Shown one piece after another: positions 1-29,318 of a stretch of 64,000 bases of DNA. The translations under genes and the position numbers were made by a program. Below the pieces are notes generated by a model. That model was not told the origin of the DNA. It saw only the letters and a list, made by a program, of their open reading frames with translations, and did not search any database. Source of the stretch: Psammoneis japonica (taxonomy: Eukaryota); contig QPGO01000062.1 in the NCBI GenBank assembly GCA_008632985.1, forward strand, positions 62,001-126,000, written 5' to 3'. Each line of letters starts with the position of its first letter. The first letter of the stretch is position 1.

Positions 1-505
1 CCTGGACCCAAGCAGCAATTTCGCGTACTTTCATGGACTCCGGCTTCTTGAGATCACGACGCAAATAACGTTTCTGCACCGAAAGTGAGTTCTTGGGAAA
101 CACATGCCTCGTGAGATGTTGTGGGCATTTCTCGAAGCTTCCTTCCGCAGATTCGTCTTCAAGGTTCGCTGCCGCATTCTCGAAAGCACGCAGAGCGTCT
201 CCTTGAAGTAACATGCGCATGAGACGAAACTCATCAGATTGCTTCCTGATGTTCTGGCCCACTGGAAGTTGATCGTAGCTCTTGAGAAATTCGATGAACT
301 TGGGGACACCTTGTTTCTTGCAGTGCTCAACATTGATGGTGCAGGTGCGGCTATCCTTCTTCTCGGGATGAAAACGTTGCTCCATCTTGAGGTGCTGGCT
401 CGGTTTGAGGCTCTTCGGCTCGGAGTTCGATTCCAGCGGTTGAGGGACGATTTTCTCCTGCCTCAACGAAGTTTTGGCGTTGGTTGCATGAGGTGAAAGC
501 TTCAT
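1..505 (-). mobile_element. Gypsy LTR-retrotransposon gag, N-terminal part (runs off the window start; absent from the ORF track because no stop lies in the window)
   Basis: Manual translation from ATG at 505 gives MKLSPHATN...DEFRLMRMLLQGDALRAFENAAANLEDESAEGSFEKCPQHLTRHVFPKNSLSVQKRYLRRDLKKPESMKVREIAAWVQ. This resembles the diatom Gypsy gag pattern (LLQGDALxAF...HVFPxxxLxxQKRYxRRxLxKPxxMxxRE). The LTR is probably at ~640-1100, which contains a 36-bp duplication (tagagcaaagctctgaatgaacaa at 971 and 1007); its ends are not resolved. Confidence 0.7.
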
Positions 506-1930
506 CTTGAACTTGTTGCCTTCTGTGGTGTGTGTGCACAATGCACTGTGCTCGAAGAACGAGTGTAAACGAAAGTGTGACGAAGTTCAAAAGGTGAAAA
601 TTATGAGAATCATTTCTGCGCAATCATTTTGGGTTTCTCCGAACGGGTTCTCAACAGCCTAAACCTTTTGCACTGCTCCTACAGACAAAAGGCCTTTCGG
701 AGAATGTGATCGTGACGACAGATTGTCCGGATACGATTGACATTGACACGTAAGATGTCAACATCATCGCACGATCGCATTTGCGATTCTCGACTTCCAA
801 TCACTTCTGTGTGACTGATCTGTACTTCGTACGAACCCACGATTGACGTACGATTGAAATGTGCTTTTATTTGACACATGGATGTACATGTGCAACACAC
901 ACATGACAACGCATGTTGCAAGAGCACGACTCTGAATGATGTTTGGATGCCCGTGGAATCTCCATTTAATTAGAGCAAAGCTCTGAATGAACAATGGACA
1001 TCCAACTAGAGCAAAGCTCTGAATGAACAACGGACGACGACAGCCTCTCCATTCAAACAGATCACAACTATGAACAAATTTGCTGATGCTCTGAACAACT
1101 GTCATTTACGAAGCTGTGCTTCGATTGACTCTGTCAACAAACACATCCGCCGAACCCTGACTGTGCCGGTGAAATCAATCCCAAGCAATTGCACATCATG
1201 TTGCGTCGTGCGCATGTGTTGCGTTGCCTCATTGTTTGTTGTTGTTGTTTCGGGTTGTCCTTCGGCGCCGTTTGTTAGATGCAGCTGACATGGTCTTTTG
1301 ACAACACTGCACACACAATGCAAACCTGCAATTGCAAGAACCATTCAATGCATTCATGCAAACCCAAACTGCCTTTCTTTGTCCAACCTTGCAACTGCTT
1401 GATCCAAAAACAACATCACACTTTTCGCCACAGCATTTTGCAGGGAACAGTGGGTTGGTTTTGAAGCACGCTTGAGCAAAATATTTTCCGTCATCTTGAT
1501 GGACCAAGGCATGGAACAAGTGAGCCTCCTCGCACTTGCACTGCAAACACAAACAAACAAACACAATTGGTTTGTGTGCGGGAACAAGACAACACAACAA
1601 CAGGCATGCCAAATCAACAATGACGTTTGCTCTGCACCTGCGAATTGCAAGCAGTTGTTTGATCCACTTGAGCCACAACGAGTGTTGCAGTTTTGTGTGT
1701 GCGTTTGTCATTTGCTGTCTTTGTCTTTGTTGCAAACAAACAACAAAGTGAGAGGTGATGTTTCCAAGATGCTGCGCACAATCCGCACGACTTCATCATG
1801 CATTCTCACCGCTTTGTTTTGCAATGGATTTGACAATGGTTTAGAGTGGTTGGCTGGTTGAGTCTGCAAAAGAAATGCCATCATGACACACATTGAATGC
1901 CGTTAGATCAACTTCTCAATGGCAATCCGG

Positions 1931-2460
1931 AGCACCAACAATGCTCTCACCTTTTCATTTGCGCCATTTGCCATCGTCTCTTCGACCTTTCTCATTGCAA
2001 ACAACAACGGCTGTGTGAGACGTGTCTGATGAATTGCACAATTGGCTGCAAGACAATGTGATCTCACCGTCTTCTGTGGTGCTCTCTCTGGCATTTCAGC
2101 AACTGGGGATGGTTGAGTCTGGCATCCAGCAATGACGCCCCAAAGTGGTTGGAGCAATTGTTTCATTTGCAACTGGAGCACCGACATTGCTCTCACCTTT
2201 TCATCATTGCCACTGTCAACCACCTCATTTGCCTGGTCACAAAGAACAGCAGGAGCAGTGTGATTGGTCAATCCAATCCATGTGTCACGCTCTGCCTCAG
2301 AACTCTGTTCACTCACTTGTTTTTTTTGTGCTGCTCCAGTGTTTCAACTGTCTGGGATGGTTTGGTGTGGCATCCAGCAACCCAATGAGGCCAAAGAGCT
2401 GTTGGAGCAACAGTCCAAATTGACAGCTGGAGCACCGACAATGCTCTCACCTTTTCTTTT
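1931..2460. repeat. Degenerate ~250-bp tandem repeat, three partial copies
   Basis: The motif agcacc(a/g)aca(a/t)tgctctcaccttttc recurs at 1931, 2177 and 2431. It translates on the minus strand as EKVRA(L/M)xVL. Confidence 0.7.
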
Positions 2461-3223
2461 GCACCAGTTGGCTCGTCCATCTCATCAACCTTTTGCATGA
2501 AGAACAGTGGTGTGAGCGACGTGCAATTCAGCCGCATGACACAATGCATTTTTCTTGCCGCTGGAGCGTTCCCGGGCTCTTGTTCCATCCTGCAACAAGG
2601 GGACCCAGACAACTGTGTCTGACAAGCCAAACAAGGCATCAAAGCGGAAGTTGGTTAGAGCCATCCAACACCACAGCAATTGGACCACCAAATCATGTGG
2701 TCACCTGTGACACCATTTCTGCCAACTCTTCGTCATTGGAACTCCAACCATCGATGACATCCAAATCCATGGTGAGGGGTTCTAGTTCATCATTGCACTC
2801 CCGACGAGGAATTTGCTCTGCCTCCTTCTCCTTCTTGGTTAACTTCCGCTTTGCCGTTGGTTCGGATGGGCAATTTAGCGCGGTGTCCATGGTCAGTGTT
2901 GACACCTGAGTTTTGGACTCATGTTGCGGATCAAGCACAATCTCTTCGTTGACCATTTGGGATGAACTGGTGACTGTCATGCTGCCATGAATCGACTGGA
3001 GCAAATCTTCCTTGGACAGCGGAACTCCCATTTGTTCTGACAACATGCTTGCTGTTTTCGCAAGGTCCACAAGGGATGCAATGTCAATGTCTTTGCTGGA
3101 TGCTCCCTGAGCAACTTGTTTTGATGCTTCGGTGTTCTCCTCCTGCTGTCAAGGACCGGAAATGGGAACGAAGTCGTCAACCAAACAAGATTGTCAACAA
3201 AAGGACAAACAAACAATGTGCGA

Positions 3224-3817
3224 CTAACTCACAGCCACTGGTTTCATCGACATGACGTAAAACTTTGCTTTGGTTGTTGTTTCCGCATTGGTTGCAGCGG
3301 GGACGGCCACATGTGTTTTACCTCCATTCTCCTTGTTGCTCTTGTGCATTGCAGTTGCCACACACCAGCCTGCTTTCCGCAGCACAAACTCCACAAACGT
3401 TTTAATTGTTTGACATTTGGCTTGGCGTGCCACCACAGCAAACCCGCCTCTGTCATCGCGGTGCATTTTGCGAGGTTTGCTGGAAGCGTCCGTGGTGTGC
3501 GGCATGAGCTTCATGTTGTTTGCGGTGAACCATTTGTCAATGGCAGCAGCCAGCCATCCTCTGTTGCGATGAAAGGCGTGGAAAACTTGACACACAAGCT
3601 GCTGATTCTCGGTTGTGTTGTCCATGCTTGCCAGAATGTTTTTGAAGTCTTCTGTTGTGACGGGATTGGTGTTTGTTGATGGCATTGCCACTTCCTTGTC
3701 CATTGCATTTTTCCGACAGCCCTCCAGGCATTGAGTCATGACGTGTTGTCGAAGGGACGACCGGATTTGTGCCAACTCTTGTGGCATCTTCTTGCCATTG
3801 GGCGGCACCATCTCCAC
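3224..3817 (-). pseudogene. Uncharacterised transposon-cargo ORF, TpA-mutated
   Basis: 197-aa ORF with protein-like composition (QELAQIRSSLRQHV...) inside the TpA-depleted domain; no family recognised. Confidence 0.3.
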
Positions 3818-4864
3818 CTCACCAAGTTGTGGACGTGCCTTTCAGCATGACCACAAAAGAGCAGCATCCTCTGGTCTTGTGGGGTCAGCCCCTGTCGTCG
3901 GATGGAAAAAGTCTCTTGGACAATCCAATGGACGATTGGGTGCTGTCATTTTTTCCCCTGGATTTGTCGTGGAAGCTTCCCACTGCATGTCAGATCACAA
4001 TGTTGGCTTCCAAACGCACACTTCGATTTCAAATGCACCCACCTGTGTTCCCCGCTGTTGCAACATCTGTCCTTGACTGGGTTGCGTTTCCCTCTGTTGA
4101 AGTGTTTGCCCTCGATGTGTTTGTAAGATCAAGGCTGACGACCGACACCTGTGTCTGATGAAATGAATTCGTCATTGTGTTTTCGACTTCCAATCGCTTT
4201 TTATGCTTGTGGATGGTCCGGGACGAGCCGAATCTGTTCGACACAATTGCAAAGTCACGGTTGCATGTTCTCATTGCACGGTTTTTGAATTGTGTTCAGT
4301 TTTGTTCTTTTCTGCATTTTTCATTGTTTCAATCAAGCATTGTTGTTCTGAAATGAACATTGACAACCATGTCGACCTGTTGTGTTAAGAAGATTGTTCT
4401 TTCCTCCCATTTGAAACAAAATTTTCCTTAAACAAAAATTGGGTTCTCATTGGCTCACTTTTGAATGTATGATTTTCCACAATTGAAGTTTGATTTTTCA
4501 TGTGTGTTCTTTTTTAAAGTGCTCGCTTCATCTACGTTGTTGAATGAAATGCATTGTGCAATCACACGATTGGGTGGGAGTGCATGCGCGCGCGTGCTGC
4601 TCTTTCAGCGTGTGGAACATGTGTGGGGCCCCACGTGCAGGGCTTGTCTGCAAATGCGCAGTGCAGCAGAATGCACGTGTTTTGCGCTTTTGGTGATTGA
4701 GAGCACATGCGTTGCTCCACCTCATTTTCACAAATCCTCTGCGCTGTGCAAGCCCATCAACAGAACTGCGATCCCTCCCCTCTTTTCCATCCAATCATCT
4801 TTTGGGACTCTTCTTGAATCTTGCATCTTGCTCTTTTGCGCATTGAACAATCCCAAACGATGCC

Positions 4865-6396
4865 ATGGACGACATGGCAAACAATTGGGGGTGCAATTTG
4901 GTTGCCGTCAGCCCGCGTGGCTTAAAACGCAATGGCGAAGATTTGATGAATTCTTCCATGGACATCGGCCACCACAAGCAGTTAGAAGAAGTTGTTTTTC
5001 ATCACTTTGATGGTGAATTGCTGCTGTACAAAGTGATGCCAAACGGCTCCGATGCAAATTTGTTTGCAATTAATTCTGTGACGGGAGGGCACAACGACGG
5101 ATGTTTGATTGCATGTGGAAGTCATGTGGCCGGTGATCATGGGCCTGTCCACTGTTGGACTGCCAGCACGTTCAGCGCAGAACATGGTCCGAGCGCGGCA
5201 ATGCATCCGGACGATGTGTTTAACTCTTTTACACGCAATCACACCATTGCGCTGCCGCATCATGTGCCAGGCACTCTGAGCTCCGTGGAGCTCAGTGAGT
5301 GCGAAAACGATTGTCTCAACCACACTCATCTCCGTTGTTTGATGCAGGCTGTAAAGAAGGTGCCAATCACTGCATTGTTTTTAGAATTGATGCTGGCAAA
5401 CAATGGCGCAACACTCAGCGACATTTTTCTAGAATCTCTCGGTCGGTTGGCTCACCACCATTCCTTTGAGATTGTTGTTGACGAAATTGTGACAGGCGGA
5501 CGCAGTGGATGCATGCCATCATGCCTGGCTAAACCCAAGCATTTTGTTGATGCTGTTGCCTGTGTTGCCATGGGCAAATGGCTGCAAGCTGGCACAGTTT
5601 TAGCAAAACCCGATCATTGCAATCAGTTTTGCAGCATGACATCATCTCTTCCCAATCGTGGCACCTCCACGGGCATGGATTGTAAACAAATCATCATGAC
5701 ATGGAAGACTGCAACTTCACAGTTTTATCTCACAGCCGAGCGTCGACAAACTGTCCTAAAGAAACTCAAAGTGACAGAGCAAGATGCGTGGGGCAGCGGC
5801 TTGCTTGTGTTTGCTCCTGTGAAACGAAGTGATCTGACGCCAGCGACCAAGAATCGTTTCCTTCCTTTGCTTTGCGCCACCCCATTGGACAACATGAAAG
5901 TCCAAAAGCACGATCAGTGGACGAAGCCTCTTGTGAGCCAACGCATTGTTGATGGATGCCGCTGTTGGTTAAATGCACACCCGCACACGGACGAGGAAAT
6001 GAGCGGCGCACACAAATTGCTCAGTCATTTTGCGGATCAACCCGCGGGCACGTGTTTTCAAACTAAGGGGCTCATGATGAATGTCCTTGGTGGGAAGCCT
6101 TGCACACCACGCAAACGTGCCAACTGTTGCGTGCTGCAGAAAAGGCCGGGCTTGTTGGCAAAACATTGGTGACTCGCAAATGCCTGCATGCCTGGAAATC
6201 GTTGGCCCCGACAACCATGCCAAGCAAGAAGAATCAACCCATGATTGCATTGTCTTGCCGCTTGCGTTTGCGCAACCTTGTTTGGACAGCCTTCGGCATT
6301 TCGAAAAAAACTGCTTCCTCCACTGCTGATTTTGGATCTTCTGCCAGTGCATCTGTTTCAAATGTGTCATTCCCTGAACACCAATTCAACCACTGA
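4865..6396 (+). pseudogene. Class-III PLP-dependent aminotransferase-like gene, hypermutated, with a frameshift near the 3' end
   Basis: ALFLELML...FLESLGRLAHHHSFEIVVDEIVTGGRSG...AMGKWL matches the class-III signature (xEP...FL..LR.L...h.i.lI.DEVxTGfGRtG...tlGK, PLP lysine). The tail appears to continue in ORF 6100-6396. Confidence 0.6.
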
Positions 6397-9300
6397 ATGT
6401 CTTTTGCCGGAAGAGCGAATTCATGATTGGAGTCGAAGATCCAACCACCATGCAAAGCAGTGCAGTGATTGTTTGTCAACCGACAAAGAACGATGTCATC
6501 GGCAACGTGGGTGGTCAAATCGAAGAATCCCCTCTTGCCAGCTGCCATTTTCTGACGCTTCTTGCATGCGTGCCACTTCATTGATGTAGCCAGTGGAGGA
6601 CAAAGCTTCTGCTTTTGTCCCAACAACATGCCAATGGCGAACTCCAACCGTTTGTTGTTGGTGTTCTCTGATCTGCAAGAATGATCCATGTAATTCACAA
6701 TGTGTCGCTCCATCCTTTCATCTCTTACATTTGGGACACTGGCCAGGCTCGAAAACACGCACGTGTCTTTCTCCCCTTGTTGATGTTTGACTGGGGGTCC
6801 CGAGCTGGGAAATTCCAGCCCACTTTTATCTGACACGTGACCCTCCGGCAGTCTGTGCCATTTCTTCCCTGGTTCCCAATCACACATGGCCTTGTACACT
6901 GTGGGACATCGCTGCTGAAAATTGGCTCTTGCCCACTCCATGGTGCAACAGCGCGGTTTCTTCCTTGTGCCAACCCCCACGAATGCTGGCGTTCCCTCCG
7001 GACCTTCAAAATCATCATCGGCTGCAAGCCCCTCCTTCATTGGCTCCTTTGCTGTCAGCCATCTCACTTTGTGAACCTGACCATTGTTTGTCACGTGATC
7101 AGCTCTTTTGCCAATTTGCCTCTTTTGTCTGGCATTGAAAATCACTCTTGTGTCAGGTTTCTTTTTAGCTTCCTCAATTGCGGCTCGAACAAGGTTCATC
7201 GGCCCTCCTCCAATGTCCTTGTCATTCGTCGCTCCAAAACAGTCTTCAGCAAATGTTCTGCCATGCTTGAAATCTTCGAACCATCCACAAAAAACTGGTC
7301 CTTCACAATCAACAGCATCACCTGGCACCTCACTTTCATCCGGCCGTGTGGCCCGATCGACCCACTCAAAACCATGCAGCCGTTCCAATTCTTTGGCATC
7401 CTCATGGCACATCCTCGCCTCATGACGTAGATCTTGACATTTCTTGTCCCTGGCAGACAACACTTTTCTTCGTGACACAAGGAGACCTTGATCTTCTGGT
7501 TCCGATTCGGACTCCTCTTCCTCTGGGTCACCATCTCCCTCTTGTGGTTTCGGTTCCTTCTTTTCTCTCTTGTTTCCCCTGGCAGAGAATTTTTTGTCAA
7601 GCATCACCTCCTTCGCCAGCTCTGTAAAACGATGTTGTCGGAACAACCGATTGATCTGGCACCAATGCAGTTGTTCCGCTTCTTTGCACCAAATTGCAAT
7701 GTGTCGCAAAGGTGGCAGAAAGAAATCCTTTTTGTTCAACCGCACTTGGCGTTTCTCTGGGTCCTTCAGAGTTTCTCTGTCTTCTTGTGCAGCACCAGCC
7801 AGCAGTTCGTACACTGCACTTTTGCTTTGTGCAGTGCAAATGGGGCACTTGCCCGGAACACACATTGCATGATCACAGCAAGGTCCCGCAAGCACTGAAA
7901 ACAAAGTTGCTGCTGGTGACAGTCCACCTTGATCTTCCTGGTTGTAATCGATGGGAAACACCATGTTGCACGTGTTGCACTTCATGTGGATGCTTTCAAG
8001 AAGTTGACACGTGGCTCCATCATCACCCAAAGGCATTTCCATTTCCATGTCTTCATCTGAATCGCTCCGACTCTGTTGGCAGTGCTTGGGGTTGAGAACA
8101 TGCTTCCGGTTGTCAGTTCCCAACTCCGCAGTTGCGTTGAACTTGCCCCTCACACATTTCGCTCTTTGAGCCAGCTCGGAAGTCCTCGATCGAAACGCCG
8201 CTCTTTTCCATGTTTCATCATTTGCTAATTCGCTCATTTGGCAGGAGAAATTGACGCTTGCGGCAAACAAAGCTGTTGTCTCGAAATGTGACTTAACTTG
8301 GTTGGCGTCACTTGCACCCACGCAACATTCGTAGGATTCGTAAATGCACTTTCCAATGTCAAACCATTGGCGTCCATCCATGTGTTTTTGCCAGGAATCT
8401 TTAAAAGAATCCAGCGTCGCATTGCCAACCATCACCACTGACGATTTGTAGATGAGGTCTTTCTCTTGATCCACCAAATCTTGGCATTGATCGGCGGGTC
8501 TCTTCTTGCTGCTCCAGAACCCAACACAATCTCGCCAATGTTTTGCATTGCATTGGAAATCATCCTCTGTGTGAGAGATGGGCAACGCAATTTTTGCACA
8601 ACGTGTGGTGACTCTGCGTTTCACCATCAGTGCCCCAGTGTCATCTCCGTCCTCTTTGATCAAAGCATTCCAACTCCAATGGTGTCTTGCTCTTTCCCAA
8701 GAGGGCTCCTCATTCATTTCCTCTGTGATGTCCTCGAAACCCAAACTTTCACAGCAGCATTGTTTGAGCTTGACTTGACAATGCAGCATTGTGTCCCAAG
8801 TGCCAACAACCGTGCAGCCGACAGATTGAGCCAGGCTAATCAGGAAGGGGCACAACCCATGGTTGTGTGCTTTGGCTCCTCTGTCGACTCGAACACAGTC
8901 AACAATTGTCACTGGCACCAATTCAATGCACCGATGCAACAATGCAGCGACAATGTCAGTTGCCAGTTTGCCACTTTCTTGATTTTTTGGCATTGCACAA
9001 ATTCCCAAAATGTGAGTGTGTTTGTTGTTCAACAAGTCAACAATGTTGCCTTCGTTTTCTTGATTAAATTCACGAAGAAGAAAATCCTTTACAGCTGCCC
9101 TTGCTTTTTTACTTGCTTCTTTGCCGAAGTCGGATGACAACCCCTTCTGGTTGTGATGCAACAAAATGCACTTCTTCCCGCGATCATTCGGCCCGCGTCC
9201 AGAATTTGCCAGTGTTGTCAGTGATTTTGGTTCTGTGCTTGGGTTGACCATGGTAAACAAGGGACAAGTGCGGTGGACATTGCCCCGCACACGCTTTGAC

Positions 9301-9629
9301 ATGTCATGTTTGATTGCATTCACGAAACGCCGGAGCTTGGTGGGAATGTGTTGAATGTCCCCCTCCTTGGATTTTGATGATTTTGGTGAAGAACCCGCAT
9401 CTTTCTTCTCCTGAGAAGCATCATTGTCTATTTCCTTAGAATTCACAGCTTCCTTGTCCTCCTCTGACGTCCGCATTTCCTCCGGCATTTCCTCCTCCTC
9501 TTCTTCCACATCTTCTTCCTGGGAATTGTGGTTGTTCTCCTCCTGTGACAACCGGATTTCCTCATTCTCTTCTCGGGAAGCCACAACAGCCGCTTTGGCA
9601 AGAGCTTTCATTCCATTGTCCCTTGACAT
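6234..9629 (-). CDS. 1131-aa multidomain cargo protein: acidic N-terminus, GNAT-like domain, C-terminal papain-like Cys-His-Asp domain (Tyr-depleted, probably inactivated)
   Basis: GNAT-like segment TIVDCVRV...HNHGLCPFLISLAQ...MLHC...CCCESLGFE (with C/H restored to Y: DYVRV...YNYGL...YYYESLGF). C-terminal QQGEKDTCVFSSLAS...NHCTALHGGWIFDSN fits the QxxxxxC/H/D layout. Confidence 0.5.
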   Translation of the reverse strand: MSRDNGMKALAKAAVVASREENEEIRLSQEENNHNSQEEDVEEEEEEMPEEMRTSEEDKEAVNSKEIDNDASQEKKDAGSSPKSSKSKEGDIQHIPTKLRRFVNAIKHDMSKRVRGNVHRTCPLFTMVNPSTEPKSLTTLANSGRGPNDRGKKCILLHHNQKGLSSDFGKEASKKARAAVKDFLLREFNQENEGNIVDLLNNKHTHILGICAMPKNQESGKLATDIVAALLHRCIELVPVTIVDCVRVDRGAKAHNHGLCPFLISLAQSVGCTVVGTWDTMLHCQVKLKQCCCESLGFEDITEEMNEEPSWERARHHWSWNALIKEDGDDTGALMVKRRVTTRCAKIALPISHTEDDFQCNAKHWRDCVGFWSSKKRPADQCQDLVDQEKDLIYKSSVVMVGNATLDSFKDSWQKHMDGRQWFDIGKCIYESYECCVGASDANQVKSHFETTALFAASVNFSCQMSELANDETWKRAAFRSRTSELAQRAKCVRGKFNATAELGTDNRKHVLNPKHCQQSRSDSDEDMEMEMPLGDDGATCQLLESIHMKCNTCNMVFPIDYNQEDQGGLSPAATLFSVLAGPCCDHAMCVPGKCPICTAQSKSAVYELLAGAAQEDRETLKDPEKRQVRLNKKDFFLPPLRHIAIWCKEAEQLHWCQINRLFRQHRFTELAKEVMLDKKFSARGNKREKKEPKPQEGDGDPEEEESESEPEDQGLLVSRRKVLSARDKKCQDLRHEARMCHEDAKELERLHGFEWVDRATRPDESEVPGDAVDCEGPVFCGWFEDFKHGRTFAEDCFGATNDKDIGGGPMNLVRAAIEEAKKKPDTRVIFNARQKRQIGKRADHVTNNGQVHKVRWLTAKEPMKEGLAADDDFEGPEGTPAFVGVGTRKKPRCCTMEWARANFQQRCPTVYKAMCDWEPGKKWHRLPEGHVSDKSGLEFPSSGPPVKHQQGEKDTCVFSSLASVPNVRDERMERHIVNYMDHSCRSENTNNKRLEFAIGMLLGQKQKLCPPLATSMKWHACKKRQKMAAGKRGFFDLTTHVADDIVLCRLTNNHCTALHGGWIFDSNHEFALPAKDIQWLNWCSGNDTFETDALAEDPKSAVEEAVFFEMPKAVQTRLRKRKRQDNAIMG

Positions 9630-9672
9630 CGCAGGCGAATCCTTGCTTCCCTTTGCTGCTGCCTTGTTTGCG

Positions 9673-12616: not shown

Positions 12617-12621
12617 CTAGA

Positions 12622-15558: not shown

Positions 15559-15761
15559 GAGCAGACACCCAGCTCGCATGTCCTTCTCATCCCCCGCAGC
15601 TAGCTGCGTGTCGGCCACAACAGCGCGTCTTTAAACAAAAGAGCATGTGCGCTGCTCCTTCACGGGTCCATCCACCATTGGAGCACGTGCACTGCTCATG
15701 CCATTGTCTCCCCCACACAGGCTGGATTGTCAACCAAGACGGATGACAGAGCAGTTGATGG

Positions 15762-19275: not shown

Positions 19276-19673
19276 TGTGTGTGTGTGTGTTCATTGTTCG
19301 TTTGCTTTGAAGAAAAACCATTTGCTCTGAGAGTGCAAAAGGTCGCAGGAGGCTGCAGTCATTTGAAGCGAATGCCCTGAATGATTGCACTTAATCGAAG
19401 GCATCCTCTGAATGTGGCTAAACAGGGCAAATGTTGGCATTTTGCTCTGATTGTCTTGTGCACAGAGCATGTCGCTCTGACCATGGCTCAAACAGAGCAA
19501 AGCCACAACCAGTTGTTTGGCACTTGCAATCGGGGCAAAATGCTCTGTTTGTTTTTTATTTAGAGCGAAAACAGCTTGTTCAGAGTGATTCTCATTTGCA
19601 GTGTAATGAGTCGAAAGAAAGAAACAGGGTTCAGGAGGTGGCGGCGGTCGGCGGGGGCGGAAAACAAGACTGA

Positions 19674-21001: not shown

Positions 21002-21044
21002 TGAAATCGAAATTTTTGGGGCGATGCCGATGACGGTTAAGGCG

Positions 21045-21840
21045 GGTCATCCCCGCGTTCATCCTAGAAATTATCGTGGCATTTGAACAAGGACATTTGT
21101 GGTGTTTATTTTTGAATGCAAAAATTATTTACATTCACCCCCGATCGCGCACGAAAACGAGAACATCAGGCACCGTGATCGAAGCACGATGATGACGGTG
21201 ATGTCGACATAAGTCCAAAACACAGTGGTCCGTGCGCAAACATTTGATGCATGTGTGACCTTAGATGCACAACAAGCACAAAATAAATGAAAGTTGACGC
21301 ACGGCCCACCTCCGTCACAGACTTGTGGCTTGATGTTTTCACCACGGTGAAGCACGGTGAAATTCAAGAAAAATCATGCAAATCACGAGCTGTTCGGCCA
21401 AATTCGAGCTAAAAAAAGTGGGGGATGACCCACCTTGAGGGGGGTCATCCCCGCGTTTGTCCCAAAATTGCCGTTGCATTTGAGTGAGGTTTTTTACAGT
21501 GTTCATTTTTGAACACAAGAATTGTTCATGGTCACACCCGATCGCGCACGAAAACGAGAACCATCAACACCGCGATCGAAGCACGACGATGATGACAATC
21601 ATCGACATTTCTCAAAAACGCAGTTTGCCGTCTACCAACTTTTCATGCGTGTGCAATCTTTGATGCGTGACAAACACAAAACAAATGAGAGTTGGCAGAC
21701 GGGCCACCTCCATCACAGACTTGTGGCTTGTTGTTTTCACCACGGTGAAGCACGGTGAAATTCAGGAAAAATCATGCAAAACACGAGCCATTCGGCCGAA
21801 TTCGAGCTAAAAAAAGTGGCAACCGACCACCCTCAAGGAC
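21045..21840. repeat. ~398-bp direct repeat, two copies (possible subterminal repeat of the large DNA transposon)
   Basis: ggtcatccccgcgtt at ~21045 and ~21443; ccgatcgcgcacgaaaacgagaac at 21141 and 21538; cacagacttgtggcttg at ~21316 and ~21714. Confidence 0.85.
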
Positions 21841-22053
21841 CCGCGTGCAATCTTCACAATCAAAGACAAACAATTTCAGTCGGCAATCGCTTCGTCGTGT
21901 TGAAGAAACCTGTCCGTTGGCACATCAACTCGTCAACTCGGCACGCTGAGACAGCATTGGACAAGATGCTGGACTTTTGCCGTTGTCTCTGTCCCTCAAA
22001 CTGTTTCCATGTCATGCAAATTGTTTGTCATGACATCGTGAGATTGGCCCACC

Positions 22054-25000
22054 ACTTGGGATGCAACAACACACTGTGTAGGATGGAGAGTTCAGGACTC
22101 TCTTGAGGTTGTGCAATGCAACAGAGGATGGCAAGAAGTGGGTTTGGGACAATGAGATGCGCCAAAGATACGAATTGTGAGAAGATCTCACGAGGGATTG
22201 GAGATGACATTATGACCCAACGGTCGTGTGTGTCACTCCGATTGCTGTCGCTAGAAGACTCAACGGACATTTCTTCCGGAAGAAGAGATCCATGACCGGG
22301 AGCGTCATCCGTGAATCAGACTCGGTTGTTGACTCGTGACTCTCCCTCTCAACCGAAAAGAGAAGGAGAACTGTCAGTCACCAGCCCATGAGGGCTTTGC
22401 GACCAGTGCGGAATAGATCGACAGTCAATCCTTTAGCAAACTGGTCAGCAAGCTGTGCAGCTGAGCTCACAGGCTCAATTTTGATCTCCAAAGCCTCAAC
22501 TTTAGTACGAAACCAATGGNNNNNNNNNNNNNNNNNNNNNNNNNNNNNNNNNNNNNNNNNNNNNNNNNNNNNNNNNNNNNNNNNNNNNNNNNNNNNNNNN
22601 NNNNNNNNNNNNNNNNNNNNNNNNNNNNNNNNNNNNNNNNNNNNNNNNNNNNNNNNNNNNNNNNNNNNNNNNNNNNNNNNNNNNNNNNNNNNNNNNNNNN
22701 NNNNNNNNNNNNNNNNNNNNNNNNNNNNNNNNNNNNNNNNNNNNNNNNNNNNNNNNNNNNNNNNNNNNNNNNNNNNNNNNNNNNNNNNNNNNNNNNNNNN
22801 NNNNNNNNNNNNNNNNNNNNNNNNNNNNNNNNNNNNNNNNNNNNNNNNNNNNNNNNNNNNNNNNNNNNNNNNNNNNNNNNNNNNNNNNNNNNNNNNNNNN
22901 NNNNNNNNNNNNNNNNNNNNNNNNNNNNNNNNNNNNNNNNNNNNNNNNNNNNNNNNNNNNNNNNNNNNNNNNNNNNNNNNNNNNNNNNNNNNNNNNNNNN
23001 NNNNNNNNNNNNNNNNNNNNNNNNNNNNNNNNNNNNNNNNNNNNNNGTGGGAGGCCTTGGGTGCGTGGGAGAACCGTGCGACTTGATGGGTCGCGCAAGC
23101 AATGTCCGGGCGGCTGTTGGACGCTAGATGCATCAGCATGCCGACCACGGAACGGCAGTCACAAGGCTCTTCGAACGGTGGCCCGTCGGTGTCGCTGCCA
23201 GCAGGAGTGGGCAAGGCAGGAGCAGGTGCGCCGTTGCACTTGGTCATCTGTGCGGTGCGGAGAACTTTCTCAATTAGGCCGGGTTGGGTCAGGAGGAATC
23301 GGCCGTCTTCGAGCTTTTGAATCTTGACACCTGGAAAGTTACTGACTTCGCCTTCATCACGTAGATCAAAGACATGGTGTTGCTCATCGTTGGAAATGCC
23401 CAACTTGGCAATCTCTGCTTCGAAGGCTTGGGCCGATGCGCCAGCGAACACGGTGTCGTCAACATGTGCCACACATGACACACCCTTTTTGAAATAAAGA
23501 CAAGGGTCAATGGCGGATTGAATCCATCCTCTTTCGAGCAATCCGTCCCTCAGCTTTTCACAGAAGCACTTGGGAGACTGGCGTAGGCCGTGTGGGCCTT
23601 TCAATGATTTCAGCACCAGATCGGCGCCCGATTTTGGTTGGAAACCCTTTGGAGGCTCTACATGGACCTTCTCCTTGATGTCAGCTTGGCAGAAGGCTGT
23701 GGCACAGTCCACTTGACGTGCAGTCCAACCTTCCTTGAGCACCGTGGTGAGGAGAAGGCGCATGGACGACCATTGCACTGCCGGCGCGCAGGTCTCGAAA
23801 AAATCGATCCCGTGTTTCTGCAAATCGCCGCGAACGCAACATCGTGCCTTGCACTTCAAGGGCGCACCATCCGGGAGTCGTTTGAGTTTGAAAGCCCATG
23901 TGCCGGGTGGTGCATTCACATCTGCCGTTCTTGGCACCATTTCCCATGCACGTCGGTGGAGCAGCGCGTTGATTTCGATTTTCATGGCCTCAACCCACTC
24001 TTCGGATTCATCGCTGCGCATGGCCTCGTGCAAAGAAGGCATGTCGGGATCTTTTTGCTTTTTAGCAGTTGCATGTACCCTGGGATCGTTGANNNNNNNN
24101 NNNNNNNNNNNNNNNNNNNNNNNNNNNNNNNNNNNNNNNNNNNNNNNNNNNNNNNNNNNNNNNNNNNNNNNNNNNNNNNNNNNNNNNNNNNNNNNNNNNN
24201 NNNNNNNNNNNNNNNNNNNNNNNNNNNNNNNNNNNNNNNNNNGACTTGAGCGACGTAAGGGTGTGACGTGGATGTCGCGAAGACGATGTCGGGGCACAGC
24301 AGTCCCGGTAAAAATGTCCGCGGGGCAGCAGCCTTGAGCGTTGGGAGTCACGTTATAAATGTGCGCGGCCACAGGCCATAAAGAGCTGTCTGTGCCCCCC
24401 TTCCAACGGATGGATGCGTGGAGGAGCATCGCTCTCGCCATGTTGGAGACGGAGCGAATGCCGCGTTCTGCGACGCCGTTCTGATGGTGGGCGTTGGTTC
24501 CACAAAAACGTAGACGTTGTTCGTGCTGTCGCATGTGTTGCACAAAAGCACTGGCCTTGAAAGCGCCAGAATCGGCAAGAAATTCTTGGATGATGACTCC
24601 GTGGTCCATCGCGTGCTTCTCAAACGCTTGCTTCGCTCGCACCGTTTCCACAGCAGAGAAACCAAGTTGGTGTTCAACATGTGGGTAACCGGAGGCATGA
24701 TCCACAAAAATGCAGCCTCCTTTGTATTGCTGGGACGAGGCCTTCCCGCAGGAGTCGTAGGTTCGGCCGAGGAGACGGGATTCGAAGTGATCCACGCTGA
24801 CGGCTTGGCCTGGACGTAGATGCTCGGCTCGAAGAGCACCCTCACGCTCTGGAGTAGCCGCATGTTTGGCAGACTTGAGGGTTCGGCGATGTCCTTTGGC
24901 ATGTTCGCACACCTCGCACCGCGGAATGTCGCAACGCGAAGCATGCTTGAATTTGGGTCGGAGAAAAGGTTCGGCCCGAAGCAGGCCTTGGATGCGTGGC

Positions 25001-28000
25001 ATGTTCAGGTGACCAAACCTGAAGTGCCATTCTTGAAGGAGCTTCTGACCGGTGGTGAGGTTCTGGTTGTCCTCGTGCAACACAGACAGATTGACTTGAG
25101 GAGCGGGTGCCACCCCGTTGGTCACAGACGCAACCGGCAAGTGATTTGACGCGTGCGCGACCTTGAGCGAACCGACGCCATCAACATGCACGCGAAATGA
25201 GTCCTCGTCTCCCTCACATTTTCCTGTCACGCCATGTTCCTTGCTGCAGAGGCGTTGTGGGGATAGAAGACGCTGTCCGGCCTGAGGTGCATGGTGCGCC
25301 ATCGTCTTGACGACGAGCTCAGAGCCGTCCTCGTCATGGAAAACCCAGGAGACGGGTCCGATGCCGGCGATGGTTAAGCCATTTGCTAGACCCCGAAGCT
25401 TCAATGGGCCATCAGGGATCGTCAGAGGTCCGACAAAGTCATTTTCATCGTGAGCAATGGCCAAGGATGCGCCAGTGTCGCACATGACGGTGTGGCGCTC
25501 ATGTGCCAGGCTCAGCAAAGCTTGCGGGTCGGCGGCGAGTTGTGCTAAAGAACGTTGGCCCGTCAATGCCTGCACAGAGGTATGAGTAGGACAGGCTTCG
25601 GTTCCGTCAGTAGCTGCCTGGAGAAGCTTCACAGGGTCTTGCCATGGAGTGGTGTCCACGAAACCAAACTTGGTGGACAGCTCGTCGAAACGAAAATAGT
25701 CCGGAGAGAGCTCCTCAACCGCATCAAAGTAGTGGCTCGGCTCGGTCGGGAGCGGGCCGAGGGCTTCCTCTGAATCACAGGTGTCGAAGTGGGACTCGAG
25801 GTCTTCTAGAGCTGGAGGGACACAGCGGCCTGGGGAAGAGCATGCGTCGTTCTCCCAGAGCTGCGTGAATTTCTTGCTCAGACAATGGTCCGGATCGTGC
25901 TCCACAAATTCGGCAAGCACTTGTCGCGCCTTGATCTTGTTGTGTTCCACCAAACTGCCCGGATCTAACACTATCTTATCGTCTGGTTCTTCAATGATCG
26001 AGCAGACCTGAGAGCTGGCTTTGGAGAAGCGAGAAGGGACATTGGAGAATGGATGCGTGGGAAGCTGACCGTTGAAAACAGACGCCCAGACCATGATAGC
26101 TCCAGTCAGCACCATCCAGGTAGAGGGGAAACCGTGAATGGTTGGGATGAATGCCTTGCGGCGCACACGACGAGGTAAGACAGGAATCGGCGCACAGCAA
26201 ATGTGTTGCACCGTTTCCCAGAACATGGCAAACAGCCAGAAAACTCGGAGCTTCAAGAAGTTCCAGAAAAGCTCAAGACGAGAGCTCGGCGTTGCCTCCT
26301 CGACGCTGCAATCAACATCTTGGGGTTCGGGATCGTAAAATTCGAAACCGCGACACTGGGTGCTTGGAGGCAAGTGCTCGTAGCTGTCTTCGAAAGGTAG
26401 GATGCTTGCCCCGGAAACGAGATCGTCTAACACATCGTCGGACAGACCTTCCACGTGAGTTGCGATCGTGTCATAAAACACGTCCGGATTTTGAATCTCG
26501 TGCATGGCACAGGCCGGAAATAGCTCGATAGCTGACGGCAGGGAGTCAAAAGAGGAGTGAGCGTCGGAGCACTCGGAGTGATCGTCAGCATCTTCGGGGT
26601 CAACCGTTTCAACCAAGATGGGAGCGGGTTTGGCCACGGTAGTCTCCCTCTCGGCCGATGGAGCAGGAGTGAACGAGACGGTCGCAGTCACTGGAGTCGA
26701 ACTCAAAGAGTCGTCCACAGGTGCACACCACATGCCGCAACAAACCAGCTCGTTAGGGTCAGAGGGGTCGGCTGCAGGCGGAGACGTCGTCTGCTCGGGA
26801 GGACCAAAAGGAATGCCCGAAGAGGGGTCCGACACAGCAGATAAATTTGCCGCAGCGGTGGTTTCGGTGTTGACAGACGGTTTCCCGGTGTGTTGAGCGG
26901 AGGAGTGGCCTTGACACATGCCCTTCTTGCCCGTTTCCTTGTTCACACACTTGTCGCACCAGTGCCAGGTCGTGCCTTTCTCGTCGGTGACAGTGGCACC
27001 TTTGTGAACGAAACGCCAGGCCGGCTTGGGTGGTTTCTTGGAAGGGTCAGTCTTCCGGACATCCGGAGGGTCATCCTTGGACTCGTCCGCCGTGCCCTTT
27101 TTGTCCTTCTTGTGGTGCTCCTTGCAGGTGGGACACGTGCGTTTGGTGCACCCAACCTTGCCACAGCCGCAGCAATGCTTTTCCGAGTTGTCCTTGGCGA
27201 GGTTGGATTCCGGGAGCTTGGCTGCTGAGGCAGGCCAATCTTCATCGCTAATGAGTTCGCCATGGGTCTTGGTGATCCAGCCAACAAGGCCAACAGGTCC
27301 AAGATCCGCACAGCCGGCATCCTTGGGGACTTCCGCCGGGTCACGCAAGCAACATTTGCGCTCCAAGCGCTTGACGGAGTCGAGCTTGGCAAAAACTTGA
27401 CGATTGAAAAACTCGGAGGATGTCTTTGACACCTCAGATAAAACAGCAGACCCAGTTTCAACTGGCAACGCATGGTCCGTCTGCATGATCTTGAGCAGGC
27501 GCAGAGCTTCGGTTGCAAGCTCGGTGCAGTCTTCGCCAGGGCAGTCATCCAGAGTTAAATCGTTCAACTTTTCCTTGGCGGCCTTGACGTCAACCAGAGC
27601 ACTGGCGTTGCAGGTGTCCAGAGCCATCATAAATGAGACAGACCCCGGAAGATCCTTGCAGTTCTTCAAGTGATTAAACTTGGTTTCAATCTTTTCACGG
27701 AAGGTTTCGGTGATGCGCGACTTGACGATGAGTTGTGATGAGCCGATGTCATCGATTTCACACTGATCGTAGCCTTCGTCACCTGCAGCCGCCACACGGG
27801 TCTCACATTCCTTCTCAAGGTCTTTGACAGTGAAGGCGTGAAGATGATCAAAAAGGTGCACGACCTTGCCGTCGACTTTCTTGAGATGGTAGAAAGTTTC
27901 TTGTCCGTGCGACTCGATTGAGTCCTGAATGGTCTTGACGAAGTGGTCTTTGTCCAGTTCAGCACTGGAACCGTTGGACAACTCAATCTGGCCGTTGAAC

Positions 28001-28736
28001 TTGGATGTGGTGGCCGAAGCGAGTTGATCTCTGAGAGATCGCTCGATAGAGTCGACAGCTTTTGGATGGCGACGTTGCGAGGCAAAACGGCAGGTGCGGG
28101 TGTCGGTCTGCTCGCACTTGTTGTTCAGAGCCGAACCACCCAGATGCACTCCATGAGAGTGGTGGACACCGCCGCGAAGCGGCGTGGGGATCGCAGGAGG
28201 GTTGGTCGAGGTTTGCATCTTGGCGAAGGCCTCAGCAAACATCTTGACGGTGTCAGGATCCATGGACATGGTCATGGATGATTCGACATAGAGGATCGAT
28301 TAGCAGGCAGGGATTGCGACATGGATGATCGCCGTTGGATTGCGACACAGAAGATCGCCGTTGGACAGGATGTCGTCTGTAACGAGACGAACGAGTGGCA
28401 GCAACTCCGTCACGAGTTGATGCCGGTGCGTGGATTGGGGTCGTAACCACTTGGGATGCAACAATGCACTGTGTAGGATGGAGAGTTCAGGACTCTCTTG
28501 AGGTTGTACAATGCAACAGAGGATGGCAAGAAGCAGGTTTGGGACAATGAGATGCGCTAAAGATGCGAGTTGTGAGAAGATCTCACGAGGGATTGGAGAT
28601 GACATTGTGACCCAACGGTCGTGTGTGTCACTCCGATTGCTGTTGCTAGAAGACTCAACGGACATTTCTTCCGGAAGAAGAGATCCATGACCGGGAGCGT
28701 CATCCGTGAATCAGACTCGGTTGTTGACTCGTGACT
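22054..28736 (-). mobile_element. Full-length Ty1/Copia LTR retrotransposon (~6.7 kb)
   Basis: 288-bp LTRs at 22054-22341 and 28449-28736; 5-bp TSD CCACC at 22049-22053 and 28737-28741; PPT GAGAGGGAG (minus strand, 22342-22350); PBS-like GGTTACGACCCCA (minus strand, 28436-28448); single gag-pol ORF. Confidence 0.95.
22378..28275 (-). CDS. Copia gag-pol polyprotein (gag Zn knuckle, protease, integrase, RT, RNase H), hypermutated; two assembly gaps
   Basis: CCGCGKVGCTKRTC knuckle; CDTGAS protease; WHFRFGH..CEVC integrase Zn finger; VSVD / FLADSG / HQNGVAER integrase core; RT KARCCVRGDLQ and VAHVDD (from YVDD); QLADQFAKGL RNase H end. N runs at 22520-23046 and 24093-24242. Confidence 0.93.
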   Translation of the reverse strand: MTMSMDPDTVKMFAEAFAKMQTSTNPPAIPTPLRGGVHHSHGVHLGGSALNNKCEQTDTRTCRFASQRRHPKAVDSIERSLRDQLASATTSKFNGQIELSNGSSAELDKDHFVKTIQDSIESHGQETFYHLKKVDGKVVHLFDHLHAFTVKDLEKECETRVAAAGDEGYDQCEIDDIGSSQLIVKSRITETFREKIETKFNHLKNCKDLPGSVSFMMALDTCNASALVDVKAAKEKLNDLTLDDCPGEDCTELATEALRLLKIMQTDHALPVETGSAVLSEVSKTSSEFFNRQVFAKLDSVKRLERKCCLRDPAEVPKDAGCADLGPVGLVGWITKTHGELISDEDWPASAAKLPESNLAKDNSEKHCCGCGKVGCTKRTCPTCKEHHKKDKKGTADESKDDPPDVRKTDPSKKPPKPAWRFVHKGATVTDEKGTTWHWCDKCVNKETGKKGMCQGHSSAQHTGKPSVNTETTAAANLSAVSDPSSGIPFGPPEQTTSPPAADPSDPNELVCCGMWCAPVDDSLSSTPVTATVSFTPAPSAERETTVAKPAPILVETVDPEDADDHSECSDAHSSFDSLPSAIELFPACAMHEIQNPDVFYDTIATHVEGLSDDVLDDLVSGASILPFEDSYEHLPPSTQCRGFEFYDPEPQDVDCSVEEATPSSRLELFWNFLKLRVFWLFAMFWETVQHICCAPIPVLPRRVRRKAFIPTIHGFPSTWMVLTGAIMVWASVFNGQLPTHPFSNVPSRFSKASSQVCSIIEEPDDKIVLDPGSLVEHNKIKARQVLAEFVEHDPDHCLSKKFTQLWENDACSSPGRCVPPALEDLESHFDTCDSEEALGPLPTEPSHYFDAVEELSPDYFRFDELSTKFGFVDTTPWQDPVKLLQAATDGTEACPTHTSVQALTGQRSLAQLAADPQALLSLAHERHTVMCDTGASLAIAHDENDFVGPLTIPDGPLKLRGLANGLTIAGIGPVSWVFHDEDGSELVVKTMAHHAPQAGQRLLSPQRLCSKEHGVTGKCEGDEDSFRVHVDGVGSLKVAHASNHLPVASVTNGVAPAPQVNLSVLHEDNQNLTTGQKLLQEWHFRFGHLNMPRIQGLLRAEPFLRPKFKHASRCDIPRCEVCEHAKGHRRTLKSAKHAATPEREGALRAEHLRPGQAVSVDHFESRLLGRTYDSCGKASSQQYKGGCIFVDHASGYPHVEHQLGFSAVETVRAKQAFEKHAMDHGVIIQEFLADSGAFKASAFVQHMRQHEQRLRFCGTNAHHQNGVAERGIRSVSNMARAMLLHASIRWKGGTDSSLWPVAAHIYNVTPNAQGCCPADIFTGTAVPRHRLRDIHVTPLRRSSXXXXXXXXXXXXXXXXXXXXXXXXXXXXXXXXXXXXXXXXXXXXXXXXXXXNDPRVHATAKKQKDPDMPSLHEAMRSDESEEWVEAMKIEINALLHRRAWEMVPRTADVNAPPGTWAFKLKRLPDGAPLKCKARCCVRGDLQKHGIDFFETCAPAVQWSSMRLLLTTVLKEGWTARQVDCATAFCQADIKEKVHVEPPKGFQPKSGADLVLKSLKGPHGLRQSPKCFCEKLRDGLLERGWIQSAIDPCLYFKKGVSCVAHVDDTVFAGASAQAFEAEIAKLGISNDEQHHVFDLRDEGEVSNFPGVKIQKLEDGRFLLTQPGLIEKVLRTAQMTKCNGAPAPALPTPAGSDTDGPPFEEPCDCRSVVGMLMHLASNSRPDIACATHQVARFSHAPKASHXXXXXXXXXXXXXXXXXXXXXXXXXXXXXXXXXXXXXXXXXXXXXXXXXXXXXXXXXXXXXXXXXXXXXXXXXXXXXXXXXXXXXXXXXXXXXXXXXXXXXXXXXXXXXXXXXXXXXXXXXXXXXXXXXXXXXXXXXXXXXXXXXXXXXXXXXXXXXXXXXXXXXXXXXXXXXXXXHWFRTKVEALEIKIEPVSSAAQLADQFAKGLTVDLFRTGRKALMGW

Positions 28737-29318
28737 CCACCTGCCCACCAGAGACGAAGGATGAGAAATGGCAAAGCCGAGCAAGCTGGCTGGCCACGGC
28801 TGGCATCGACACATCTGGCTTCACCCAGCAACTTGTGCAAGGCAGCAACTTCAATGCAAGTCATGGAAATCTTGACACTTCTCCAAAGTTTTTTCTGAGC
28901 AGCACACTCGACAAAGAGCCACAAAGGGGCTTTGCACCCAAAAGCCCCCATCCCTTGGTGTCCTGGCTGCTGAGAGCTGCTTTTGGCATCACAGCCACCC
29001 ACTCAGATGGTTGAAAAACTTTGGCTCAACAATTTTTCTTTTCATTTTGCAAAATTTGCAGTTCTTCTGAGCTGGCAAGGGGGGCGGCATCAGTGCATGA
29101 GGAACATGAGCACTAAACCAACGCGATCTTCTGCCACACAGACAAGGCAGGTATCTTTGCCGCGCGCATCGGACTGTGTACGGTACGTGAGGTCTCGTAC
29201 AAATTCTACGGAGAGTTGACTTACGTGTTATTGGTTATTGGGACGCAAAATCTTTTGCTTTCCGCATTGACACCACCGTTGAAGAACAAAAATGATGGGC
29301 AGGCCGTTTTCAACAAGA

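Follow-up and report, generated by a model that had tools for sequence, protein, structure and literature searches.

We analyzed a stretch of 64,000 nucleotides (here, the window) from the diatom Psammoneis japonica (contig QPGO01000062.1, positions 62,001-126,000, forward strand; coordinates below are window positions), in which a Copia retrotransposon and other unusual blocks of DNA lie among host genes. We suggest that these are blocks of silent mobile or foreign DNA that were hypermutated in place, after their arrival, at the dinucleotide TpA only, and that the process is likely of the same kind as that reported from the alga Bigelowiella natans (bioRxiv 10.64898/2026.01.13.699255; this preprint is cited here from parts of its text). 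In the comparisons of sequence described below, the loss of TpA has a clear signature, a direction, a time of origin after integration, a symmetry between strands, a preference for certain contexts and a confinement to the blocks. From these properties we infer that the process is driven by an enzyme and that it serves in genome defence.

To describe the signature, the count of each dinucleotide was related to its expectation from base composition (observed/expected, o/e), in 2-kb and 500-bp windows and per block. TpA is depleted in three sharply bounded blocks, namely block A (1-29114), block B (43505-45033) and block C (50979-55975). TpA o/e is 0.14 (206/1449) in block A minus the Copia element (1-22050), 0.23 (70/306) in the Copia element (22051-28737), and 0.05 in block B (5/103) as well as in block C (18/337), as compared to 0.57 (803/1402) in genic DNA (29152-43503 and 45034-50140). 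Followed along the DNA, the ratio lies at 0.0-0.3 across the blocks and at about 0.5-0.7 in the intervening genes, while TpG and CpA reach 1.4-2.0 times expectation in the blocks. AA, TT and AT are not depleted, with an AA o/e of 1.2-1.5 in the blocks; per kb, the blocks hold ~0.20 of the genic amount of TA, 0.81 of that of AT and 0.93 of that of AA+TT. Thus, the loss is specific to TpA. The edges of the blocks are less than 100 bp wide, and across them the spacing of TA shifts from several hundred bases to 10-40 bases.

In every block, the surplus of TG and CA approximately equals the deficit of TA plus that of CG. The TA and CG deficits are 624+321 against a TG+CA surplus of 1060 in the non-Copia part of block A, 105+22 against 81 in the Copia element, 54+59 against 112 in block B and 175+210 against 453 in block C. 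CpG o/e ranges from 0.11 to 0.9 across the blocks, with 0.18-0.37 in block B and 0.11-0.24 in most 500-bp windows of block C. A preliminary description of this DNA had stated that TA is nearly absent, and its hand counts of 3 TA in 51061-51660 and 20 in 34201-34800 are exact; the sliding-window profile that it called for, computed here within the window, shows low TpA and high TpG+CpA in the blocks. The extent that it gave, 1-29150, captures block A but was too narrow: Two further blocks (43.5-45.0 kb; 51.0-56.0 kb) exist, and the left end of the window cuts through block A. Similarly, its term "transposable element domains" is supported only for the Copia element, its long terminal repeats (LTRs) and a high-copy element with inverted ends in block C, which leaves aside most of 1-22 kb.

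Independent contigs carry blocks B and C as well. Contigs from a DNA run cover 43001-56400 at about 60x word depth, and single contigs span the edges at 43504, 45034, 50978 and 55976, i.e. all four edges of blocks B and C. The preliminary description had considered that the changes might be absent from reads; the blocks and edges are found again, in contigs that are assembled and not raw reads. Between contigs and window, 8 letters differ at six sites in 13.4 kb (one CA/TA, two TG/CA and three of CpG type). All six sites lie in blocks B and C, five of them in B, and none in the 6874 nt outside (Fisher p=0.013), which hints at recent or ongoing change.

The direction of the change can be read from the reverse transcriptase (RT) of the Copia element. 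An X-free RT segment of 348 aa was used as query against 1.84 billion representatives; the best 150 matches were taken, of which 136 with at least 300 aligned residues were kept and 14 were dropped. Tyr makes up 0.3% of the window segment, as compared to a median of 3.2% in the homologues. All six columns with a consensus Tyr are replaced, reading Cys, His, His, His, Cys and His in the window, and one of them is the Tyr of the catalytic YxDD box (VAHVDD in the window). Among the 136 homologues, 124 have no Cys or His at these columns, six have one, one has two, and five have four or five. We then polarised the conserved RT columns using 129 homologues as outgroup, with the seven low-Tyr ones set aside. 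Of 29 replacements that a single base change can explain, eight are T>C before A, five A>G after T, two A>G after A, two G>A and 12 transversions; at ten further columns, at least two changes are needed. In other words, 13 of the 17 polarised one-step transitions are of TpA type and four are other transitions. For comparison, 14 control loci were tried; stops in the naive translation removed five of them, and alignment trimming another two. The same polarisation of six related environmental Copia loci with normal TA gave 0, 0, 0, 0, 0 and 0.3 TpA-type changes versus the 13 in the window, and these six loci retain Tyr or Phe at the six columns. TpA o/e of the six closest environmental relatives is 0.47-0.79. 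The ten peptides that had been singled out in the preliminary description (CKARCCVRGD, ETCAP, QVDC, KVHVE, PHGLRQ, VAHVDD, MLMHLA, DIACA, NFPGV and KSLKGP) are all found in the minus-strand translation of 22378-28299. Its two central claims are also borne out: The direction is loss of TA, with relatives that are neither already Cys/His (124/136 without) nor poor in TA, and the substitutions are specific to TpA.

The two LTRs of the Copia element date the changes. The element is on the minus strand, with the 3' LTR at 22051-22342 and the 5' LTR at 28446-28737 (96.6% identity over 292 nt). Both LTRs of a retroelement are copied from one template and are identical upon insertion; therefore, differences between them arose after integration, on DNA. 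The pair differs at eight sites, i.e. three TA/TG, one TA/CA, two TG/CA, one CG/TG and one other transition, with no transversion and no gap, so that six of the eight are of TpA type. There are two sites with TA in both LTRs, four with TA in one and two with TG/CA; if hidden concordant double hits are set equal to the visible discordant ones, each LTR had an estimated ~10 TpA at insertion and lost 60% of them. From very few events, the loss per LTR is 0.60 for TpA, 0.036 for CpG and 0.002 for other bases, which per site puts TpA at ~25 times CpG and at hundreds of times other bases. The element as a whole has 70 TA versus 175 expected at the host ratio, a loss that is also 60%. Thus, essentially all loss of TpA in the Copia element postdates the insertion of an unmutated copy.

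Tandem copies within block A tell of changes in non-coding DNA as well. The 281-bp array at 9762-10904 (4.1 copies) is non-coding and its copies differ chiefly by TG versus CA; its 19 variable pyrimidine-purine sites comprise ten with CA+TG, one with CA+TA+TG, one with TA+TG, four with CG+TG and three with CA+CG. By contrast, in a genic control, the tandem paralogues of an FkbM-family methyltransferase (37093-38346 and 38546-39814, both on the minus strand; 87.7% identical over 1.1 kb), the TG-versus-CA class makes up only 1 of 132 differences and 61 of the 132 are transversions. The two copies of the 398-bp array at 21040-21819, also inside block A, are an older duplication and differ by nine CA/TG, four TA/TG, four CA/TA, ten CpG-type changes, 14 other transitions and 25 transversions.

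The footprint is not restricted to this window. Five of the 136 Copia RT representatives (P0151, P0191, P0234, P0251 and P0269) bear it, with Cys or His in place of four or five of the six consensus Tyr. Of 521 confirmed metagenome relatives, 80 Copia loci were examined; four of these, all short contigs (L031, L032, L036 and L049), have a TpA o/e of 0.04-0.18 and a TG+CA ratio of 1.55-1.67, as compared to a TpA o/e of 0.34-0.91 in the other 76. Relative to the less mutated L072, TA became TG or CA 18 times in L031 versus one change in reverse, and 15 versus three times in L049. Between L032 and L036 (96.5% identity), most differences are transversions or changes of CpG type, and the pair is little informative, as TpA is already gone in both. 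No metagenome locus of at least 3 kb contains an internal TA-free sub-block. The presence of the footprint in public Copia proteins and contigs implies that the process occurs in further organisms.

Several properties characterize the process. First, it is symmetric between strands. The non-Copia part of block A has 2129 TG and 2145 CA, the sense strand of the Copia RT carries both T>C (8) and A>G (5), and no local strand clusters of TG or CA beyond the genic background were detected at scales of 50-1000 bp, which a single-strand deaminase would leave. The equal yields fit the proposal of the preliminary description that one lesion is applied to either strand of a palindrome. Second, it depends on the flanking bases. 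With R for purine and Y for pyrimidine, the TA that survive in the blocks are 27 RTAY, 171 mixed and 101 YTAR, as compared to 269, 413 and 119 in genic DNA (chi-square 89, p=5e-20), so that RTAY makes up 9% of surviving TpA versus 34% of genic TpA and YTAR 34% versus 15%. Survival relative to genic frequency rises from 0.015 for ATAT over 0.04 for ATAC/GTAT, 0.14 for GTAC and 0.35 for CTAG to 0.65 for TTAA. Judged by these frequencies, RTAY, above all ATAT, appears to be lost first and YTAR last. Third, the change of TA to TG or CA can yield neither TAA nor TAG, and TGA only from TAA. The lack of new TAA and TAG accounts for the open 5.9-kb Copia frame and for the plentiful long open reading frames (ORFs) of the blocks.

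Fourth, the loss of TpA is accompanied by loss of CpG. Inside the blocks, the two depletions correlate (Spearman 0.64, p=4e-9), and outside they do not (0.20). The Copia element, which is young, has 414 CpG versus 436 expected, i.e. near the host level despite its 60% loss of TpA, and blocks B and C are depleted in both. This pattern fits a fast process at TpA and a slow one at CpG acting on the same silent DNA, and the DNA of the blocks is presumably methylated. Finally, the process is confined to the blocks. The elongation factor G (EF-G) gene (29561-31714, plus strand), an unaffected neighbour that served as a control, begins about 450 bp beyond the edge of block A and shows no leakage, with its eight consensus-Tyr columns reading six Tyr, two Phe and no Cys or His. 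Duplicated host sequence is also spared: The FkbM paralogues have a TpA o/e like that of genic DNA, and so, for the most part, does an array of 68 copies of a 108-bp coding unit (0.26-0.85 per 500 bp). Thus, duplication alone is not the trigger, and the process is not repeat-induced in the sense of repeat-induced point mutation (RIP).

Under the mechanism that we propose, blocks of silent mobile or foreign DNA would arrive in a nuclear chromosome of the diatom and would then be hypermutated in place. The silencing machinery would recruit an enzyme to the silenced chromatin, and this enzyme would cause A:T to G:C transitions only at TpA, on either strand equally and at RTAY before YTAR, giving TG or CA. 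The elements would be inactivated by missense changes, i.e. Tyr to His or Cys including the Tyr of YxDD, with their frames left open, and ordinary CpG decay would run alongside in the same blocks. The likeliest candidate for the enzyme would be a DNA adenine deaminase that converts A to inosine, which is read as G, and this would be the simplest chemistry. In tRNA, adenosine deaminases target A34, the base that follows the conserved U33, which offers a natural explanation for the 5' T. TadA, ADAT2-ADAT3 and the TadA-derived DNA base editors deaminate A after U or T, and we take this family to be the candidate one here, with a host gene that would carry the HxE-PCxxC motif; no deaminase domain is among the Pfam matches within the window. 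As a broader and tentative proposal, diatoms and chlorarachniophytes, two distant branches of the SAR supergroup, might share with the other bearers of the footprint a dedicated TpA-specific DNA base-editing system that constitutes a widespread eukaryotic defence. Such a system could be recruited to silenced mobile or viral DNA, prefer RTAY, edit either strand of duplex DNA, kill by missense without creating stops and act more than 10 times as fast as CpG decay.

The strongest rival of this mechanism concerns its enzymology only. In a thymine-directed variant, a TET/JBP-type enzyme would oxidize T at TpA to 5-hydroxymethyluracil (5hmU) or 5-formyluracil (5fU), which would mispair with G and give T>C. 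TpA is palindromic, and A>G on one strand cannot be told by sequence from T>C on the other. Against the variant, A is the main pairing partner of 5hmU, and to our knowledge nothing is known of TET/JBP-made 5hmU in diatoms. In dinoflagellates, 5hmU made by TET/JBP marks and silences transposons (PMC11572971, cited from part of its text), and thymine-directed modification of repeats is there tied to silencing; it is described as an epigenetic mark and not as a mutator. In addition, the B. natans preprint favours adenine deamination, with an ADAT2-like candidate that is a proposal only (bioRxiv 10.64898/2026.01.13.699255). We consider the thymine-directed variant unlikely, and adenine deamination remains our preferred chemistry.

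Alternatively, the changes could be a by-product of chromatin state, caused in heterochromatin by error-prone repair of the kind performed by DNA polymerase eta (Pol eta) at WA motifs (W, A or T) or by unrepaired damage at TpA. Pol eta does make A>G errors at WA motifs, and CpG decay makes the blocks resemble methylated silent chromatin. Nevertheless, such errors would also be expected to deplete AA, which is at 1.2-1.5 times expectation. Edges narrower than 100 bp and a per-site excess of the order of hundreds are not what a by-product predicts, and neither is an LTR pair in which six of eight differences are of TpA type with one CpG transition, one other transition and no transversion. Thus, we regard a mere by-product as improbable. 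Two further general processes were set aside by inference only, i.e. ultraviolet photoproducts at TpA, which are not confined to sharp blocks, and GC-biased gene conversion, which is likewise not confined to sharp blocks and would touch all A:T sites.

It could also be argued that no special process exists, with elements that were poor in TA from the start and an excess of TG and CA that stems from decay of methylated CpG. CpG is indeed depleted in the same blocks, its depletion correlates with that of TpA, and differences of TG versus CA could derive from CpG. However, all six columns have TGY or CAY in place of a conserved Tyr codon (TAY), and TA versus TG/CA still segregates between the LTRs, among the tandem copies and between the window and the contigs of the DNA run. 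The Copia element has kept its CpG and lost 60% of its TpA, and its six closest relatives are not poor in TpA. Conversely, the environmental locus L067 has a CpG o/e of 0.07 yet retains TpA at 0.51, so that decay of CpG alone does not give the footprint; as the sole cause, it would also leave a deficit of 54-624 TpA sites per block to be explained. This alternative is very unlikely.

Equally hard to maintain is A-to-I editing at the level of RNA, in which an ADAR-like or fungal TAD-like enzyme would edit transposon transcripts and reverse transcription would fix the changes. RNA adenosine deaminases favour a 5' U (see also bioRxiv 10.64898/2026.01.13.699255), and the clearest target in the window is a retrotransposon. 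But the differences between the LTRs postdate integration, the sense strand has A>G as well as T>C with TG nearly equal to CA in number, and non-coding arrays and blocks lacking any signature of a retroelement are equally affected. An artefact of assembly, sequencing or contamination, for which the two gaps of N inside the Copia element might speak, can be dismissed, given a contig set at ~60x that spans four edges with 8 letter differences in 13.4 kb and the same footprint in unrelated database proteins and metagenome contigs.

Several points weigh against hypermutation in place at TpA, or limit how far it can be taken. All evidence is comparative, and no de novo event is seen. The DNA run possibly comes from the very sample that was assembled, and its contigs are not raw reads, i.e. 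they are not an independent confirmation on a second platform; allelic variation, differences between strains or the choice of consensus may account for the six differences between contigs and window. Sites that show only TG and CA are ambiguous and could stem from CpG; therefore, the direction is fixed only by sites that still show TA and by the Tyr codons. The rates in the LTRs are based on 12 inferred TpA events, one CpG event and one other event, and depend on the assumption that hidden concordant double hits equal visible discordant ones. For the context preference, the elements may have had an ancestral composition unlike the genic baseline. Finally, most of block A is coding DNA without an assigned family and is not a proven transposon, so that, with blocks B and C included, only a part of the targets is demonstrably mobile or foreign.

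The process resembles, and differs from, several known systems. The closest is that of B. natans, in which Mettrop et al. (2026) followed mutation-accumulation lines (bioRxiv 10.64898/2026.01.13.699255). According to the consulted text of the preprint, an integrated giant virus and a virophage together received 231 of the 302 new mutations. Almost all were A>G or T>C, with all of the GC-biased ones at TpA, and the rate was about 1000x background, in some lines only. The genome of B. natans contains 124 clusters of windows poor in TpA and rich in CpA+TpG, its TpA-poor genes show an enrichment of RT and DDE domains, and an ADAT2-like deaminase is proposed as candidate, for which DNA-editing relatives are cited. 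As far as this text goes, the two cases share changes at TpA only, TpG/CpA on either strand, a GC bias, confinement to discrete regions of an otherwise normal genome (foreign there, and here at least in part) and lasting clusters. When the two thresholds of the preprint are applied here, 20 of 64 1-kb windows pass, among them runs of 8, 3 and 5 at 1001-8001, 15001-17001 and 51001-55001.

The two cases also differ. The host here is a diatom, i.e. a member of the Stramenopila, while B. natans is a rhizarian; the target here is an LTR retrotransposon together with ORF-rich DNA without family, while it is a giant virus and a virophage there. Depletion is far deeper here, with a TpA o/e of 0.05-0.23 versus 0.45 for the giant-virus region of B. 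natans, and evidence from mutation-accumulation lines there contrasts with comparative sequence evidence alone here. The RTAY preference, the rate relative to CpG in LTRs, the co-variation with CpG and the sparing of duplicated genes are described here and were not met in the consulted text of the preprint, the main text of which does not contain the word "diatom" (bioRxiv 10.64898/2026.01.13.699255). A literature search for the signature in diatoms or elsewhere, which covered openly accessible papers and preprint main texts but not subscription-only papers or preprint supplements, returned only this preprint and no diatom. Accordingly, the view of the preliminary description that no such pathway had been described is outdated. 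The phenomenon itself is already described, and what is new here is a second, distant lineage, the diatoms, and an LTR retrotransposon as target.

RIP in Neurospora and other fungi similarly inactivates mobile DNA by context-specific transitions and leaves a dinucleotide footprint in bounded blocks. However, RIP converts CpA to TpA, enriches the DNA in AT and generates stops, whereas the process here removes TpA, raises GC and cannot generate stops. The usual RIP cut-offs are about 0.89 for TpA/ApT, which is high after RIP, and 1.03 for (CpA+TpG)/(ApC+GpT), which is low; the blocks have 0.15 and 1.62, respectively, and genic DNA 0.59 and 1.28. Moreover, RIP is triggered by duplication, whereas duplicated host genes here are untouched, a comparison made with hypermutated blocks whose original copy number is not recoverable. 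Decay of 5-methylcytosine (5mC) yields the same products, TpG and CpA, in the same blocks and in correlation with the loss of TpA, but it targets CpG, is slower in the LTRs (3.6% versus 60%) and spares TpA in CpG-decayed relatives. The preliminary description had already argued that neither RIP nor decay of 5mC explains the loss of TpA, in line with RIP indices that point in the opposite direction and with the independence of CpG and TpA in L067 and the Copia element. ADAR and APOBEC3 in animals are likewise deaminases that hypermutate mobile or viral nucleic acid, and ADAR favours a 5' U. By contrast to the post-integration and strand-symmetric process here, they act on RNA or on single-stranded cDNA prior to integration, with a bias for one strand, and APOBEC changes C.

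Until now, the mutational defences known from eukaryotes relied on cytosine deamination, i.e. RIP in fungi and APOBEC/AID in animals, and an A:T-directed process at one dinucleotide was first reported in 2026, from one rhizarian alga. Given its occurrence in a diatom, with a much deeper signature, the process is probably not peculiar to a single strain. Its enzyme can thus be sought by comparison, among deaminase or dioxygenase genes that are common to hosts of the footprint and absent from footprint-free relatives. The blocks also have practical consequences. They keep long ORFs that are dead genes, which mislead gene prediction and repeat annotation and inflate Cys and His. The dating of transposons is biased, in that divergence between the LTRs here is mostly hypermutation and not clock-like. 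If our proposal is true, a natural A-to-G editor of duplex DNA with a four-base preference would be of interest to genome engineers.

With respect to the contents of the blocks, the Copia element is the only mobile element of the window that can be assigned to a class. Its polyprotein ORF (22378-28299, minus strand) matches RVT_2 (E=4.5e-32) and gag_pre-integrs (E=2e-4) and is open over 1973 codons including two gaps of N. These gaps, at 22520-23046 (527 nt) and 24093-24242 (150 nt), mask part of RNase H and the junction of integrase and RT and are probably scaffold gaps caused by repeats. Between the 5' LTR and the edge of block A lies a TA-free flank (28738-29114), and TA density returns to normal between 29114 and 29152. 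The remainder of block A (1-22050) is open at the left end of the window and contains long intronless ORFs on both strands. Within 4847-19290 there are at least three, perhaps five, of these (1162, 582, 558, 441 and 372 aa); the three longest exceed the maximum of 443 in 200 second-order Markov simulations of block DNA. All five have 0-0.6% Tyr and are enriched in Cys and His, and the ratio of (Cys+His) to Tyr is 9-51 in block ORFs, as compared to 1-3 in host genes.

The origin of these ORFs was searched for in several ways. A Pfam scan of the 118 block ORFs of at least 90 aa gave no match above the curated cut-off and one weak sub-threshold match, and at E<=5, 14 block ORFs, 13 of them from the 118, gave noise only. 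No relative was found in a word-indexed homologue search with the 1162-aa ORF, no match in PDB sequence searches with three block ORFs and no match in two scans of block ORF content against viral contigs. Single-sequence AlphaFold models of two ORFs had mean pLDDT (predicted local distance difference test) values of 34.5 and 35.8 and were too poor for a fold search. With dense, intronless ORFs on two strands, the layout would suit a large DNA element or an integrated virus better than a retrotransposon. A foreign origin is seen for the Copia element and for the inverted-end element, and the long ORFs of block A and blocks B and C are without detectable relatives.

Block B is a 1.5-kb island, depleted in TpA and CpG, amid host genes. 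In block C, which is 5 kb long, TpA and CpG together are depleted most deeply. Nested in block C is the inverted-end element (54302-54864, ~560 bp), the 27-nt ends of which (54302-54328 and 54838-54864) are 89% complementary. The contig word depth over this element is 3890-7048 versus about 60 elsewhere, i.e. 65-115x the single-copy level, and it probably belongs to a family resembling miniature inverted-repeat transposable elements (MITEs) that is abundant in the genome.

By their relatives, the host genes of the window are those of a diatom: Named best matches are all diatoms for EF-G (58-64% identity) and also for a fragment of XPO1 (33821-36307), with 78-86% identity to proteins of Extubocellulus, Attheya, Odontella, Chaetoceros, Thalassiosira pseudonana and others. 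No identical protein was among the matches of EF-G or XPO1. EF-G and XPO1 were recognized by Pfam matches and are each uninterrupted over 700-830 codons; Pfam matches also point to a gene with an HA domain. At the right end, more than 68 copies of a 108-bp (36-aa) unit stand in tandem from 56500 to 64000 and beyond the end of the window. With its strong GC skew (+0.3) and several long frames that are open, this array resembles a giant coding gene made of repeats; it has weak Pfam matches to Yae1_N and glycine-zipper families. A shorter array of the 108-bp unit (5.6 copies) lies at 50141-50751 and is covered by spliced-looking contigs of one run. The contigs of this run skip seven introns (80-103 nt, GT..AG) at 46630-49386 in genes at 45.7-50.7 kb. 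These contigs look like spliced transcripts; none covers block B or C, and from this missing cover we draw no conclusion on silencing.

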